Shown here one piece after another: positions 21,001 through 27,000 of a stretch of DNA of 64,000 bases. The stretch comes from Escherichia coli (GTDB lineage Bacteria; Pseudomonadota; Gammaproteobacteria; Enterobacterales; Enterobacteriaceae), in assembly GCF_024298765.1 (NCBI RefSeq), contig NZ_CP101211.1. One strand, 5' to 3'. How positions within the stretch are numbered: the stretch's first letter is position 1; each line of letters opens with the position of its first letter. The position numbers are program-made.

Positions 21001-24000
21001 CCCCATACCAGCCTGAATGGGAGAAAAATGAAAATGCGCCGGATGCCAGACCATTAGACAGGTCATAGCGCAATTTCCCGCACAGAGACTGGCTGTCTTT
21101 GCTGTACACGCGATTAATGAAAATACCGGGACCAACTTCTACCGGCTGCTTGTTGCTTGCTAAACACGGAAAGCCCACCAGCGAAACCTCCCTTTCTCCT
21201 GACCAGTTTACCTGATACCCGGCAGTGAGAAAGTCCGTCAGTTCTACGCCAGAAAGAGCATTAATGGCCGCGATATCGGTAGTCAAAATATTTACGTTTT
21301 TCATATTCATCTCATCTTTATTCTAAAGTGCGTTTTTTGTCTATCAGCCCGAGGATTGAAAATTTGAATATTTAATGTGACAGATAAATACCTGTCACTT
21401 TTTCAAAAACAGCCTGTAATTGAATATCGAGAGAGTTCATTTTAAAATCCACCAGCTCAGCTTTATTATCGCAAACCAAATAAAAATAGGAGTCAAATGC
21501 GTCTGTATCTTCATCTTTAAAAATACGGAAGGAATTAATTTTATCATGCCCTTCAAATTCGGCATGAATACCATAGCGAACCGAGCCGTCATCGAACTGA
21601 ACAACCCGTCGTACAGAATTAATCCGGACGTACTGTTTTAAGGCCCTCGCGAAATCGGCATTTAACGCCAACGCTCGTAAGATTGAATCAGCGGTTTCAT
21701 TCTGCTTTTTACGATCGTATTCAAATATCCCACAGCCGGTGTTACGAAAGACCGGCTGAAGAGCATTAACCAGGTTGAAGGAATCCACGTTTCTGTCGTT
21801 TCTGTACATGAGATATCTCCTGCCCCTCCGCTATACGAAGGGGCTTGATAGGGTTACTGCCAGGCTGCGATCACTTCTTCGCACTGGAAATGAGATAAGC
21901 ACTGCTGGAGTAGAAGAGCCAGCACCGCTGTGTTAGGGACGCGATTGTTACACCACGCGTTGAAAAGCAGCTGCCATGGACCGGCATAATACCCGGCCAG
22001 TTTCTTTTTTTGTTTAGCTGTACGGCAGCGGGAAATGGCCTGCTGATAAAGGCTTTCATTCTCATCACCAGCCCGTTTTTGCAGAGTGCGATAAATATAC
22101 GAATAAAGACTGTCAGAACAGTTTGAAGCGTACGCCAGTTGTTTTTTCATAATACCTCCTGTTTAGAAGTATTATATGTAAACAGCCTCAGCGGCTAATA
22201 ACCCGTAGCAATATAATTTGCATTTTTTCTATTTCTGAAGACGCTTTTTAAATTAATATTTACTGAGTTATCACAACTTATTATTCTTCCCGTCTGCTGT
22301 TTTATTAATCCCCCAGTTAGTAATCACGCCAAGTCGGCGCAATTTTTCACGTTGTTCATAAATAAAAAAATCGCCAAGGCAGTCTTTTAAAACTTCACTA
22401 TCCTGATATTTTATTTTTTGAAGCATCCTCGCAACTATGGCGCGTTTCAGGAATATGGCTGCATCAGACTCAAGCATTTGTGAGGACTGTCTGACGGTCT
22501 CCTGCATGTCGACGATACTGCTGAGCTTTCGTCTGACCACGCTTAGCATAGTGTCCGGGAACCGCTTAGCGGCTGAATGTAACCCGCAACAACGTTACGC
22601 ATTGTTTTACTCACTGCAATTTTCCATTTAAGTCTGTTTGTTCCACCAGCTGCTAACATCAGCGTTATTCATCCTGAGGTTTCGCCCGCGATTGACAGAT
22701 CAGAGGCAGCATGGATGAAATTGCCAGAGTAGATCACTGCATACGCGAATAGTGGTTTGTATTCAGTTCTGCGTTTGCCTGCTTTTCCAGTGCTGTCATA
22801 ACCCGGCGGAGCATCGCCAGAGCCTGAACAGGCGAGCTCCCAAACTGCACTTTCACTTCAGCCGTATCATGATCCTGAATCAGGTCGAGTATATTCACTT
22901 CGATCCCTGCCCCGTTTTCATCTTTTGCCGTGCACTGAATACTTACCCGGGTCACCGAATCCGTCAGGACTGGCAGTGGGTTAGTTTTGTCTACGTTGAT
23001 AACAGCCTTCTTCATTGCCCTGTTTCCCCTTGTCCTGAAAAAGTTACCGACCCGTCCGGATGGAGGGGTCGGTCAGAAAATCATGACTGTCCCTTGTTCA
23101 TCTTATCAGCATGCTTACGCAGGTACTCTTTCAGGTCAGCATGAGCGTTGATGATATCGTTCATTTCATCATTGGTCAGAACAAGCGTGTAAGTATCAGT
23201 ACTGACAGATTCACCTTCTTTAAGCTTGGCTTCTTCAGCAATACGTTCAAAAATCGGGATCGCGGTGTCTGCAATGACGGTCACAGTCTTTTTGTTCAGA
23301 ACGCTGGACATGGAAGGTGCTTTACCTGCCGGGTTCTGTTTAGGAGCGCTGTCCTTTGGAGCTGGAGCCGGTTCCTGTACCGGTGGCGTATCCAGCGTCT
23401 CCGTATTGCTTTCATCGTTCAGTTGATCCGGTACCGGGGTGTTATCGGTAGTATCATCTGCCGGTTGCTCAGCACCGATGTTTTCCGGAGTCTGCGGATC
23501 TGCCATGCGCTCTTCTACCTTGGCAGCTTTGACGAATTTCAGCGTGTTTTTCGTCGCCTTGCCATAGATGGAGATCGCTTTGTTGATGTTATCTACCGCA
23601 TCCTCACCGCTGTACATATACTCGTCCAGTGCAACGTACATGCTCACCTGATCGCTCACAAGCATGGTCTGTAGTTCAGAAGGCAGGTCCAGTACGCGAA
23701 CCATCTGGCGAAGATGCTGCTCTGATTTACCACGTTTTTTTGCCAGTTCCGCAAAGGTCTTAGGCTCTTCTTTATCTTCAACCAGACGCTTAATTGAAAG
23801 CGCTTCAGCTACGACAGACAGCGCCAGGTTGGAGTTGCCGGTCAGGGTGAAGAGTTCTGCTTTTGAAGCGCTACCGCGAAACTCTTCGCAGCGAATACGA
23901 GTAATGCGTTCACGCCCTTCTGCTTCCAGCTGGCGGTTTGCAATAGCGATGGAACGGATACGGCAAGCCCCCTGACGCAGTACAGGTACGCCATTAACCA

Positions 24001-27000
24001 TCTGAACAACGATAGGCGTCACGCTGAACGGGTCTTCCATGTAGGCATCGGCCAGGCTGTTCAGGTGTTCCACAACGTGAGGCATTGAATAGTAGAGCTC
24101 GCCCATACCGGCCGTGCGGGTGTTAAAGCCTTCCTGCTCTACAACAACCGAAGGGTCAATGATAAGGCCGTTGCCTTTACGGGCACCGTTACCAGTGCGT
24201 TCCAGGTAACCACGAAGGCTGATTTCGTTGCTGTTGTTTTTTACTTCAGTTTCGATTGCGGACATTTTTGTTCTCTTTTTTGGTTGGTTGTTTAACTGCG
24301 CTACAACACAACAATACCAGGTTCGACATTTTTCCTAATAGGTTGCGGAGAAGAAAAAGTAACTTTTTTTAAAAATTTTCCTGAGGCAATACTACTCGAT
24401 CCGTCCGTTTTAAATCTTCACAACAGTGGGCCGTTTTTACGTTTAAGCAAAATAACTGGTTCAGAAGGTGACTCAGAGAGAAAAGTTACTTTTCCGGTTG
24501 TCTGGGCCAGTGATGGGAGAGTGGCAGGACAGGAATGGCTAAACCGGTGCGGGTCTCTTGTAAGTCGCAGGGGATTCAGGAGATATAGAGGTAAACTGGT
24601 ACGTTCAGTTTTTGGATTGAGCCGGGCTTTTGGCCCGGGCTTAAGGAAGCAGAAATTTGAACGAACTGGCAGGTAATGCTTTATGCCGCCGACAGCTGGC
24701 CGTCAGTGCTTTGCTGTTCTGGTTTGACAGTTGGGGGATAACCGGCAGTTAGCCGCTGGCATTCCGCATCACAGAAAGCCCTGAGGTTGCTGAAGACGGA
24801 CTCCATGAAATCAGCATGAGCATACGAGTCTACAGGACGTGTCTTGTTATCTTTCATCTTGTTCTCCTCAATCATTATTAAAACCAGCGGATTTAGTTTC
24901 TGGCGCTCCATCTGCTGACCGGCTTTCCCAGAGAGCAGCGATGTGTCGGGTTCTTTTTCTCATTTTATCGTTTTCATCGGGCCCATCCGGGCGTATAAGA
25001 GACCGATTTGGCATGTTTAGGAAACGTACTGGCGTAATTAAAAGCTGAGGTTGGATTTGGAATAAAAGGATGCTTTTCCCGTTTGTCGGGTCTTTCGCCA
25101 CCGCTGCACGATGATTCTGTCAGGCATTCTGCGCCCTCCCAGGCTGCACATCTGGAAACAAGCGTTGGGATGTTCCCTTCCCCTGCTCACCGTAGAAAGA
25201 TCGGCAAGTCCCGACGGTCGTTCCGTACGAGCCGGGTCCAAATAATGAATAAATAAAACGCCGCTTCAATTGTATTGACAATAGAAGTCAGGAGGATCAT
25301 AGTGTCATTCATGGTGCGGCTTTCGCACCACCGCCCCGGCGGTACCGGGCAGAACTGGAGTACCTCATGAAACTTTCCCGTCAGACGACTTCTGATACTT
25401 CTGTTGATGGCCGTTCACGCGCATATGCCTGGGGCCGTGTCCATTATTTCATTATCGAACATGCACCAATGGCTGAGCTGGTCGCTATTGACGAGCTGCT
25501 GGAAAAAGCTGGCTGGAGCAATGACGGCTGTCCGAACTATGAGAAAGATGACGAGTTTGGTAATGCTGGTTACAGCTGTGGTTACTGGATCGATATTGAC
25601 AGCGTGGGAAGCTTCAAGGCTGACTACAAACGTCTTAAGGGGGAGATTAGTGCGCATATCGCCTCAAAGGCGGCAGAGGTGGAGATCCGCGTACTGGACT
25701 CGATGTCCGACAAAGAATGTAAAGATGTTGCCTCGGTGGCATCTACTGTTCGCCGTGACTTACGTACGCAGTCCGAATCGCTTCATTCACTGCGTACAAT
25801 CGTAACGGTTGATCATTACAATCCCTATGTGACCACCAGCCGCCCGCTGAGCATTTCCGCCTGGACACTTATCCACGACTGTCTGAAAACAGGCACCATC
25901 AATGACGTCTGTTCACGGTTGAGTTCATTAATCCTGCACTCTGAAGCCGCGATTGCCCGTTGTAAGGGAAGCTCCGACTACTCTTCGGAACACGCTCAGC
26001 TATCGTTTTTTGCTGGTAACGACTATGTCACCAGACGCACCCTTGTTGATGCAGCTCACGAAGAGGCTCTGCGAATGAACCGCCGCTTTGATGAACGCAT
26101 TGCAATGAACGCGGATTCTGATGCCAGAAGGCTCCAGTGCGAATTCAACCTTAGCAACCATGTCGTACAGCGTAGGACCGTTGAATCTGCTCATATCCAG
26201 GCACTCAATGAAGACGTCACCCGTTCACAGGCGGAACCACGCTGCCCTGGAAAGCTTCTTCTGAATATGACCAGTCATGAGGAAGTGCGGGACTCACTGA
26301 GCGCCTGTTAGTCCAGCGACACCCCCTGCGGCTCTACTACCGGGCCGCAGTCTGCTCCTGCCCAGATGGTGCCAGTGGTGTAATGAATTTGTTTAATAAG
26401 GCTAAGTATGATGAATAAAGAACAACTAATCGACAAACTGGAACGCGTGGTATGTGGTCAGTACTCCTACGAAATGCAGGAGCTTGCGTATTCGGCCCTC
26501 TGCTGCATTAAAGGCACCCCGGACGACTGCGCTAAGTTCCCTGTTACGCGTCCGCTGCCTGACACCTTAGTGGACGTATGGGACGAAATCGGGCAATACC
26601 TTGGCACAGGCAAAGCCATTGAAACTCGCAGTTGCGGCGTTTCGCTTCTGCTTCATGGACACTGCTACGATTCAAATCATGTGCTTTACTGGCGCAATGC
26701 TGGCGCACTTCCAGCAGCTTGCGATACGCCACTGGCTGGTGGGTCTCGCAAACTGTTCACCTGCTCAGCCTGTGGAGTGGACGGTCTGGATGAACCACCT
26801 GAAACCAGTTGCCACTGCTGCACAGAGGGGGCCCACTGGGTTGAGAGCAGGCTCTTCACCTCCGGGCAGGCAGACCCTGAAGAATTTAGACCCGTGGCGG
26901 TCGTGAAAGAGTGTGCAGGCTCAACGCCGGATGATCGGCTCATCTGGAGTGTGATTGAACAGCTCAACGGCGAACTGGCGGAAGGCGATAAACTATTTAA

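Follow-up and report, generated by a model that had tools for sequence, protein, structure and literature searches.

The backbone sequence of an IncHI2 resistance plasmid suggests a previously undescribed plasmid-wide regulatory network on IncHI backbones, formed by a ParB/KorB-type protein and a short dispersed palindrome. Our literature search found no description of either component. The window, a stretch of 64,000 nucleotides from Escherichia coli contig NZ_CP101211.1, is IncHI2 backbone (100% identity to pSTM6-275) and encodes a 394-aa protein, here called P1, probably a novel KorB-like regulator within the ParB family. The palindrome, 11-13 bp in length, is present in about 40-50 copies across IncHI plasmid backbones, and selection acts on its sites.

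The P1 gene and its product

An earlier note on this DNA had described a 394-aa ParB/KorB-like reading frame with two copies of a dispersed palindrome upstream and no ParA partner, and the analysis bore out each of these points. The P1 product is identical to WP_001272970.1, where it is annotated as 'hypothetical protein'. Both upstream sites are perfect copies of AAAAGTWACTTTT. The features of the locus are as follows (palindromes carry no strand):

23081..24265, minus strand: P1, orphan ParB/KorB-like protein of 394 aa (ORF call, ATG start)
24355..24367: proximal palindrome AAAAGTAACTTTT, putative autoregulatory operator, 90-102 bp 5' of the P1 ATG (24265)
24481..24493: distal palindrome AAAAGTTACTTTT, 216-228 bp 5' of the P1 ATG
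24296..24345, minus strand: conserved block lying between the ATG and the proximal palindrome, about 90% kept in IncHI2 versus R27
23046..23073, minus strand: terminator-like hairpin (12-nt arms, 4-nt loop), then AACTTTTTC on the minus strand, directly 3' of the P1 stop codon

The proximal palindrome has orthologous sites in R27 and at the Yersinia, Klebsiella and L015 homolog loci, and the distal one has an orthologous R27 site at -223. The conserved block may contain promoter elements, for which TTAGGA-16 nt-TGgTATTGT and GTTACT-17 nt-TATTAG are candidates; a generic promoter scan gave no match in the block and no confident sigma-70 promoter adjoining the operators. The position of the hairpin right behind the stop codon suggests that the P1 gene is monocistronic, and the hairpin is absent from the terminator-scan output. 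The gene itself is part of an extended array of small genes that all point to the presumed oriT and include methyltransferases, a PAPS-reductase-family protein and toxin-antitoxin genes. None of the nine contexts examined for P1 and its homologs contained an adjoining ParA gene, the neighbours being small hypothetical genes, and the ParA/ParB and ParM modules of the plasmid are located elsewhere. We therefore rejected P1 as a type Ia partition ParB, which is recognized by an adjoining cognate ParA ATPase gene. A KorA-like neighbour of P1 and the korA-incC(parA)-korB arrangement of a central control operon were not found either.

P1 is composed of an N-domain with HTH (residues ~17-255), a linker (256-318) and a two-helix C-terminal domain (325-391). 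The search for a ParB N-terminal domain proposed in the earlier note gave a divided answer: PHROG_1033, 'ParB-like partition protein', matched residues 24-255 (E 1.6e-21), whereas Pfam ParBc/ParB_N (PF02195) matched neither P1 nor any of the 73 family members. The HTH segment was recovered by Pfam HTH_ParB (PF17762) at residues 149-209 (E 1.5e-5), and phmmer aligned P1 with the DNA-binding domain of Caulobacter ParB (E 1.6e-4). Against PDB, the P1 family profile retrieved Spo0J (3e-18), Noc and KorB (5.5e-8); the Spo0J alignment spans the N-domain, box II included, and the P1 HTH can be aligned with the HTH by which ParB/Spo0J and Noc bind parS and NBS. For the AF2 model (pLDDT 83.8), Foldseek returned KorB 8qa9 at the top (TM 0.64-0.67, target-normalised), followed by ParB and Noc. 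The acidic Pro-rich linker (13 Pro, 13 Asp/Glu, 3 Lys) is disordered: pLDDT is under 60 at most of its positions and under 50 at residues 269-292. Overall, these results support P1 as an HTH-bearing predicted DNA binder of the ParB/KorB/Noc type. A nuclease-only ParB/Srx protein was rejected, given the HTH and a sulfiredoxin match that is only weak and partial (E 0.04).

The idea that P1 is KorB-type rather than a partition protein held in part. The best structural match, the missing ParA and a motif dispersed in the manner of the OB operators agree with it, whereas the CTP-binding boxes are degenerate and the KorB Pfam domain PF08535 is not matched by P1 (4 of 73 relatives match at E<=0.001). 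Box II of P1 is G99-A-C-R102-I-R104-S (GACRIRS) against GERRxRA, with the family consensus G-H-C-R-x-R-A: the Gly and two Arg are retained, the Glu is replaced by Ala or His and the first Arg by Cys. Box III reads T-G-N144-S-N against ENLQR; its Asn is invariant, and the catalytic/Mg-binding Glu is missing, with Gly in P1 and Ser in the IncC-type clade. These changes make a KorB-like CTP clamp uncertain. Throughout the P1 clade the recognition helix, S-E-Q-H-[LIV]-R-[QK]-[ML], is kept, in step with the invariant motif, and the family also shares a conserved N-terminal 'SLR' peptide.

Abundance and conservation of the palindrome

Allowing at most one mismatch, the window contains 15 motif sites against 0.24 expected, a count reached by 0 of 100 shuffles, and it holds 19 exact AAAGTNACTTT cores. 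Globally, the complete plasmid has 43 motif sites (0.8 expected) and 42 copies of the 11-bp core AAAGTWACTTT (0.17 expected), whereas compositionally matched control palindromes yielded 1-6 sites. Motif sites extend across the whole backbone, promoter regions included, as in a KorB-type system; the accessory resistance region is nearly devoid of them (1 site in ~90 kb). About half of the plasmid's sites are intragenic. Intergenic DNA, which makes up ~17-20%, is 2.5-3 times enriched in motif sites (window, 12/19, p ~5e-5; plasmid, 21/43, p ~2e-5), and many lie regularly 100-220 bp 5' of genes in the minus-strand array. The cores in the window outside the P1 locus, again unstranded, are:

4269..4279: intragenic, trhF/trhH junction; orthologous R27 position kept
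6888..6898: centre C, within the trhR-like gene; centre T at the orthologous R27 site
7329..7339: 76 bp 5' of a 266-aa minus-strand gene that corresponds by position to R27 trhR (R operon); borders the presumed oriT region
7814..7824: 198 bp 5' of mobI/traH (H operon), within the presumed oriT region
11237..11247: centre C, within the MobH relaxase gene
12675..12685: ~290 nt into the coupling-protein gene; orthologous R27 position kept
14405..14415: 3' end of the coupling-protein gene, 66 bp ahead of the next gene; kept in R27, centre base flipped
19307..19317: intergenic, ~163 bp 5' of minus-strand gene 18859-19143
32921..32931: between minus-strand ORFs, ~200 bp 5' of ORF 32429-32719
35905..35915: ~152 bp 5' of minus-strand ORF 35433-35753
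38636..38646: intergenic, 3' of the PAPS-reductase-family gene, ~130 bp 5' of the next small minus-strand gene
43685..43695: intergenic, ~206 bp 5' of minus-strand gene 43152-43478
47897..47907: intergenic, ~170 bp 5' of minus-strand gene 47349-47726
52066..52076: centre C, within Ig-like-domain gene 50575-52992
53101..53111: intergenic, ~108 bp 5' of Ig-like-domain gene 50575-52992
58818..58828: ~300 nt into the second Ig-like-domain gene (58518-60938, plus strand)
61042..61052: intergenic, ~100 bp 3' of Ig-like gene 58518-60938

At four intragenic sites, every one of the 10 arm positions is preserved at the orthologous place in R27, while flank identity is 62-69% and the centre base is flipped (joint chance ~8e-8). 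Selection thus acts on the motif sites. The motif also follows the protein clade. It lies 79-118 nt 5' of the homolog ATG in seven of the eight lineages examined, at protein identities down to ~35% (motif-upstream lineages: IncHI2 P1, an IncHI1-like plasmid, R27, Yersinia, Klebsiella, P0037, P0044/L015 and the IncHI2 paralog P2). The Yersinia plasmid homolog has 44% identity, the homolog on a Klebsiella IncHI1B plasmid (35-38% identity) is preceded by six perfect copies within 900 bp, and the copy upstream of the P0037 homolog is degenerate. In Leclercia, the eighth lineage (~50% identity), two copies with one mismatch each lie at -258 and -291 instead. No motif copy was found within 6-20 kb of the IncC-type clade (L024, L033) or of eight phage relatives, and in the homolog tree the motif-associated clades are separate from the motif-free ones. 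In the IncC-type homolog the recognition helix is similar (H-V-R), yet no motif lies nearby. Every motif-bearing plasmid of known context has the IncHI transfer backbone, TrhR/TrhY-like genes included, so another factor shared through this backbone is possible.

Proposed mechanism and competing explanations

On balance, and with modest confidence, we lean towards P1 being a sequence-specific ParB/KorB member that controls its own gene and regulates the plasmid widely through AAAGTWACTTT. A P1 dimer would bind this core, presumably without reading the centre base, and through the copies at -90 and -216 P1 would control its own gene. The ~40-50 further copies on IncHI backbones, located 5' of the minus-strand array genes, by the oriT, R-operon and H-operon promoter regions and within tra genes, would make P1 a plasmid-wide regulator by analogy with KorB and its OB sites on RK2. 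In this scheme we infer P1 as the binder, the step from binding to transcription control, the direction of that control, and any nucleotide-dependent clamp or sliding.

The paralog P2 needs to be carefully considered, for the palindrome may be read by P2, or by P1 and P2 jointly, with the P1 gene merely one member of the regulon. P2 (387 aa) is encoded outside the window, with a Dam-like methyltransferase on one side and a DUF4942 protein on the other, and was present on all IncHI-type records for which the second match location was inspected. Over the N-domain and HTH it shares 32% identity with P1, and the IncHI2 copy has a 1-mismatch motif 79 nt 5' of its ATG; on a 5-kb metagenomic contig, a P2-clade gene is preceded by a perfect copy at -131, and the contig has two further sites. 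The P1 and P2 clades are sisters, both motif-associated, and since the motif also lies upstream of P2, co-occurrence cannot tell P1 from P2 as the reader. We regard a role of P2 as reader as unlikely: its recognition helix varies within the clade (SPTTISSLIR, QVSSIRQMMR, SAVTVTNYIR) while the motif is invariant and the P1 helix conserved, and the biggest motif clusters lie 5' of P1-clade genes, as on the Klebsiella plasmid. A segregation role, in which P1 is a structural protein and the palindromes are parS-like loading sites, possibly with the plasmid's ParA acting in trans, seems improbable to us. The fold and HTH are nearest to chromosomal ParB, Noc and KorB, the intragenic half of the sites is conserved in place, site clusters adjoin the gene in a parS-like manner, and the 'SLR' peptide could serve for partner interaction. 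Against this, ParA is next to the gene in no context examined, the plasmid is already equipped with ParAB and ParM modules, and the sites are backbone-wide, intergenic-enriched and regularly found 100-220 bp 5' of genes.

The motif could instead serve a different IncHI backbone regulator, for instance the TrhR/TrhY activators countered by HtdA, with P1 only a regulated gene. In R27, mutation of htdA derepressed 139 of 161 genes at 25 C, which means that a plasmid-wide circuit exists, with DNA targets undescribed (PMC7366339). Motif copies do lie upstream of the trhR-like gene and of mobI/traH. However, no DNA-binding domain was detected in the TrhR- and TrhY-like proteins in Pfam or NCBIfam, and a 13-bp perfect palindrome is a typical ParB/HTH dimer target. 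Moreover, no motif copy occurs in the F operon promoter region of either IncHI2 (window 5345-5937) or R27, and the F operon is reportedly the reporter by which TrhR/TrhY activation was demonstrated in R27. Taken together, we consider such a regulator quite improbable. A role for P1 as a leading-region establishment factor resembling HerB/YfjB of F, expressed soon after arrival in the recipient and acting chiefly on the host chromosome, appears very improbable. ParB-like leading-region proteins can reprogram the host, as HerB does (PMC13370423); P1 lies in an array pointing to the presumed oriT, and a distant relative adjoins PsiA and an AcrVA2-like gene. HerB, unlike P1, is a 71.5-kDa protein with an extra D4 dimerisation domain, intact CTP boxes and ChIP regions without a consensus motif (PMC13370423). 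P1, by its sequence context, appears paired with a highly specific motif on the plasmid itself.

Relation to known systems

VirB of the Shigella virulence plasmid is a ParB-like, CTP-dependent H-NS anti-silencer. It resembles P1 as an orphan plasmid ParB-family protein in transcription regulation instead of partition, the role proposed for P1; the VirB plasmid is AT-rich and H-NS-silenced, and IncHI conjugation is under H-NS/Hha control (PMC7366339). By contrast, VirB sites are few and lie 5' of specific virulence promoters, and VirB showed no sequence closeness to P1 (E 0.63 in the family profile against PDB). Anti-silencing by P1 would be pure conjecture. BisD of ICEclc, a ParB-like CTP clamp, activates transfer-competence promoters at a distance (PMC12409273). 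Likened by description, P1 would share with it the setting of a conjugative element, the proposed loading at specific sites and the regulation of transfer genes over distance, whereas BisD is an activator with BisC and no partner was identified for P1.

HerB is likewise an orphan ParB-like protein amid small, uniformly oriented genes of establishment/anti-defence type, and it binds the host chromosome. Compared by description, its four-domain architecture with the D4 'dome' (~650 aa) is not found in the 394-aa P1 (PMC13370423), which seems tied to a specific plasmid-borne palindrome. Chromosomal ParB/Spo0J and Noc gave the best sequence-profile matches (E 3e-18 to 1e-15), but P1 differs from them in having no ParA partner, in the change of GERRxRA to G[AH]CRxR[AS], in the loss of the ENLQR Glu, and in target sequence and C-terminus.

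KorB of the IncP-1 plasmid RK2 is a ParB-family CTP-dependent sliding clamp and global repressor, with 12 sites of the operator OB, TTTAGCSGCTAAA. P1 differs from KorB in that it is not encoded with ParA (IncC) or KorA, matches no KorB Pfam domain, has a degenerate CTP pocket in boxes II and III, and ends in a C-terminal domain of two predicted helices; there are ~45 P1-type sites instead of 12, the operator sequence is another one, and P1 has a paralog. On the other hand, P1 shares with KorB the ParB N-domain and HTH, KorB being the best match of the predicted structure, a palindrome of 13 bp whose odd centre is degenerate, putative operator copies 5' of its own gene, and backbone-dispersed copies of which some are promoter-proximal, some 100-200 bp upstream and some promoter-distant.

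The P1 protein and its surroundings

P1, the ParB/KorB-like protein encoded in this IncHI2 backbone, carries only the names 'hypothetical protein' or 'DNA-binding protein' in RefSeq.

23081-24265, minus strand: P1 ORF, 394 aa

In a single-sequence scan, HTH_ParB was the sole Pfam match of P1, and PHROG_1033 ('ParB-like partition protein') matched residues 24-255 (E 1.6e-21). The profile of a 73-sequence P1 family matched Spo0J (3e-18), Myxococcus ParB, Noc and KorB (5.5e-8) in the PDB, with the alignment to these ParB-type proteins extending through box II of the nucleotide pocket. 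For the AF2 model of P1 (pLDDT 83.8; residues 17-255 very confident), the best Foldseek matches were KorB 8qa9 (TM 0.64-0.67 on target), then ParB and Noc. A disordered linker follows at residues 256-318, in which Pro and Asp/Glu account for 13 positions each, and two long helices are predicted for residues 325-391, which have no recognised relative. The earlier note had described ParB-N-like and HTH-like segments and an acidic Pro-rich linker; the profile, HTH, structure and linker data therefore bear this description out. In profile searches of the kind that it proposed for the ParB N-terminal domain, PHROG_1033 covered this part of P1, and Pfam ParBc matched no member of the family. A nuclease-only ParB/Srx protein, which the note itself had named as the case against its claim, does not apply to a ParB-type fold with an HTH.

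The nucleotide pocket of P1 is kept only in part. Box I reads GFNTR, with the Asn and Arg invariant, and box II reads G-A-C-R-I-R-S (family consensus G-H-C-R-x-R-A; canonical GERRxRA). Box III has T-G-N where the canonical form has (V)-E-N, and thus the Glu required for hydrolysis in canonical ParB is absent. Throughout the 73-member family, the box II loop (G-x-C-R-x-R) holds a near-invariant cysteine, which is Cys101 in P1 (codon at window 23969-23971), at the place of an Arg in canonical ParB. This residue recalls the catalytic Cys found in sulfiredoxins.

Many IncHI2 plasmids from Salmonella, E. coli, Enterobacter and Klebsiella contain the segment 22600-25400 with 100% identity. The IncHI2 reference pSTM6-275 (NZ_CP019647.1) is collinear with the window from record position 184385 to window position 28076, beyond which the record contains IS insertions. 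The Tra1 transfer region makes up the left part of the window, and a long array of mostly small minus-strand genes runs from ~18.4 kb onward, with the P1 gene inside it.

Tra1 region (window left part), minus strand: trhG/trhH/trhF-type genes
Tra1 region: two small genes at the positions of trhY and trhR in R27, the IncHI1-type reference plasmid
Tra1 region: presumed oriT gap
Tra1 region, plus strand: mobI, MobH relaxase, coupling protein and downstream genes
38753-41137, minus-strand array: 794-aa PAPS-reductase-family protein
44321-45571, minus-strand array: N6 DNA methyltransferase

The array (window 18440-54000) also encodes an HNH protein and RelE/ParE toxins, and it looks like a leading or establishment region. 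Its small genes all point towards the presumed oriT. Directly downstream of P1 lies a 93-aa gene on the minus strand (window 22734-23015) with no family match. This gene adjoins the P1 homolog in IncHI1 plasmids too (R27 93607-93888; L010 11254-11535), and is not kept in the Yersinia, Leclercia or Klebsiella plasmids. Rfam gave no match in the window and PADLOC none for P1 or for P2, a ParB-like paralog encoded outside the window; readings as an RNA element or a defence system were dropped on these grounds.

A dispersed palindrome and the placement of its copies

The 13-bp palindrome associated with P1, a candidate operator, includes the form AAAAGTAACTTTT. Two copies had been placed ~90 and ~215 bp upstream of P1 by the earlier note, and both are present as perfect palindromes.

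24355-24367: perfect palindrome AAAAGTWACTTTT, 90 bp upstream of the P1 ATG
24481-24493: perfect palindrome AAAAGTWACTTTT, 216 bp upstream of the P1 ATG

Overall, the window contains 15 sites with at most one mismatch against 0.24 expected, and 19 exact AAAGTNACTTT cores. In the 275.8-kb plasmid there are 43 sites, including 19 perfect ones, where shuffles gave 0.8; for the 11-bp core AAAGTWACTTT, 42 occurrences compare with 0.17 expected. Ten control palindromes with the same base composition had 1-6 sites each. The palindrome is no chance feature. GTWAC by itself is not enriched (514 observed, 548 expected) and the A/T arms are essential, so that a methyltransferase or restriction-site reading of the motif was rejected. 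Mismatches cluster at positions 1, 7 and 13, and the functional unit is therefore taken to be the two 5-bp arms AAAGT and ACTTT, with the centre unread. Which way the centre base faces with respect to the gene differs among lineages, in keeping with a symmetric dimer site.

Copies of the core also occur elsewhere. Genome contigs were scanned motif-first for two core motifs 20-50 nt apart, returning at least 120 loci in unrelated AT-rich genomes, in some of which the 11-mer recurs often; among the matches listed, none of the loci encoded a P1 relative. The scan shows that the core is able to recur within other repeats. A Lachnospiraceae MAG contig (L054) has nine core copies in 2.3 kb, and the copies in this and like genomes are probably other repeat families.

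Within the plasmid, 12 of 19 sites in the window and 21 of the 43 overall are intergenic, against ~17-20% intergenic DNA (p ~5e-5 and ~2e-5), although the PLSDB gene table is incomplete and some of these sites may fall in unlisted genes. Within the array, the distance from a site to the gene start downstream of it is regularly 100-220 bp (19307, 24356, 32921, 35905, 38636, 43685, 47897, 53101). Sites beside the presumed oriT precede the trhR-like gene by 76 bp and mobI by 198 bp. The ~90-kb accessory resistance region has a single 1-mismatch site. The 100 kb of R27 that were examined contain 25 cores, and nine of these occupy places orthologous to window sites. At four intragenic sites compared with R27, the arms match at all ten positions and the centre base is flipped, with flanks only 62-69% identical; the joint chance of this arm conservation is ~8e-8 with codon constraints ignored.

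Each of the three large Ig-like-domain genes of the plasmid is accompanied by one or two motif copies, located close upstream or in the vicinity, which suggests that they may belong to the same motif regulon.

50575-52992 and 58518-60938: Ig-like-domain genes, sites 53101, 58818 and 61042
pSTM6-275 263500-265956: third Ig-like-domain gene, sites 266112 and 266177

A generic promoter scan found no promoter adjoining the operators and none that was confident, and promoter assignments are therefore putative. The block between the proximal site and the P1 ATG, ~90% conserved between IncHI1 and IncHI2, contains weak candidate promoter elements. A hairpin after the P1 stop codon was missed by the generic terminator scan. 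An imperfect GC-rich hairpin or tandem 13-mer (TTGAGCCGGGCTT/TTGGCCCGGGCTT) at window 24617-24642, between a small ORF (24681-24857) and the distal palindrome, may be a terminator insulating the P1 promoter region.

The motif beside P1 relatives and its candidate readers

Close full-length P1 relatives form ~30 clusters, all from large enterobacterial plasmids, and an exhaustive search extended the wider family to 254 representatives. Genomic context was fetched for ever more distant relatives, and the motif was sought upstream of the gene.

Motif copies upstream of P1 relatives (identity to P1; motif position)
IncHI1-like plasmid and R27: ~65%; -96 to -105, further copies upstream
Leclercia plasmid: 50%; two 1-mismatch copies, -258 and -291
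Yersinia plasmid: 44%; -97
Klebsiella IncHI1B/IncFIB plasmids: 35-38%; six perfect copies within 900 bp, nearest -109
P0037, basal relative: 33-36%; degenerate copy, -98
P0044, P2 clade, metagenomic contig L015: 27-36%; perfect copy, -118 from the copy's end to the ATG

The proximal copy lies 79-118 nt from the ATG in 7 of 8 lineages, a count that includes the IncHI2 P2. By contrast, no copy was found within 6-20 kb of the IncC-type clade (L024, L033) or of eight distant phage relatives, the only ones returned by a locus search from a second family alignment. A neighbour-joining tree separated the motif-associated proteins from the motif-free ones, each set falling in a superclade of its own. 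The motif-associated P1 and P2 clades share a Tyr in the helix that follows the HTH (VS-x-Y; Tyr209 of P1, window ~23639-23641); Thr or Ser replaces it in the motif-free IncC-type clade and Asp in P0037, making it a candidate specificity determinant. Each of three phage contigs (L019 5498, L020 9, L021 4781) that encode distant relatives (~27% identity) contains two copies of another 13-bp palindrome, ATTGCGGCGCAAT, lying ~500 bp upstream of the match. It may be an analogous operator of other specificity.

The comparative data substantially strengthen the earlier interpretation of P1 as a regulator acting through this motif. P1-motif binding is putative, and the paralog P2 confounds the assignment.

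pSTM6-275 (NZ_CP019647.1) 269897-271060 (L026 9827-10990), outside the window: P2, WP_000114859.1, 387 aa

The P2 gene is flanked by a divergent Dam-family methyltransferase and a DUF4942 protein, a three-gene arrangement also present on L015. P2 shares 32% identity with P1 across the N-domain and HTH, and its gene has a 1-mismatch variant of the palindrome, AAAAGGTACTTTT, 79 nt upstream of the ATG, so that co-occurrence does not separate P1 from P2 as the motif reader. The recognition helix is conserved across the P1 clade and varies in the P2 clade, which favours P1 as the putative specific reader. The motif could also belong to the HtdA/TrhR/TrhY circuit, since in R27 the effect of HtdA, which counteracts TrhR/TrhY, is nearly plasmid-wide (PMC7366339). 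On the other hand, no DNA-binding domain was detected in TrhR/TrhY-like proteins, and the F operon promoter region, the reporter for TrhR/TrhY activation, has no motif in IncHI2 or R27. Among the R27 expression-table entries named 'partition protein', R0153 was rejected as a P1 homolog, being by position a thermonuclease-type gene beside a cytosine methylase; R0042 was also weighed.

A bolder and rather improbable scheme is an undescribed two-paralog ParB system of IncHI1, IncHI2, Klebsiella IncHI1B and related plasmids. P1 and P2 would load at ~45 invariant AAAGTWACTTT sites, some conserved inside tra genes, with a degenerate nucleotide pocket that either cannot hydrolyse CTP or makes no use of it, and the pair would govern expression across the plasmid, for instance by working against H-NS/Hha silencing or by reinforcing it. 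If true, it would supply the missing DNA-level link for the near plasmid-wide HtdA/TrhR/TrhY effect in R27.

Comparison with known ParB-fold regulators

IncHI plasmids are carriers of multidrug resistance in Salmonella Typhi, and they also disseminate mcr-1 along with further resistance genes among Enterobacterales. To our knowledge, no DNA targets have been defined for the regulation known in these plasmids (TrhR/TrhY, HtdA, H-NS/Hha). A network of conserved operators, with a ParB-family protein as its candidate reader, would offer concrete, testable sites through which transfer and establishment genes could be controlled across the plasmid, and the motif is a compact marker of IncHI-type backbones. 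A literature search found no published description of the P1 protein or the palindrome.

The closest anatomy to the P1 locus is that of KorB of RK2, as described in PMC11790492. Both systems combine a ParB-fold HTH protein with a 13-bp palindrome whose centre is degenerate and whose copies are scattered along the backbone, some of them upstream of the gene for the regulator itself. Unlike KorB, P1 has neither the korA-incC-korB operon context nor the KorB Pfam domain; it also has degenerate nucleotide boxes, a different C-terminus and a paralog, and its associated sites are about four times as many. On present evidence P1 would work like KorB, while falling outside the KorB operon and domain definitions. 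VirB, BisD and HerB are further ParB-fold regulators of mobile elements, of which HerB differs from P1 in size and domains and has no consensus site. From the comparison with KorB, VirB, BisD and HerB, we therefore regard the P1 locus as a probable further ParB-family regulator, previously undescribed, which would bring to this growing group an example whose nucleotide pocket is degenerate.
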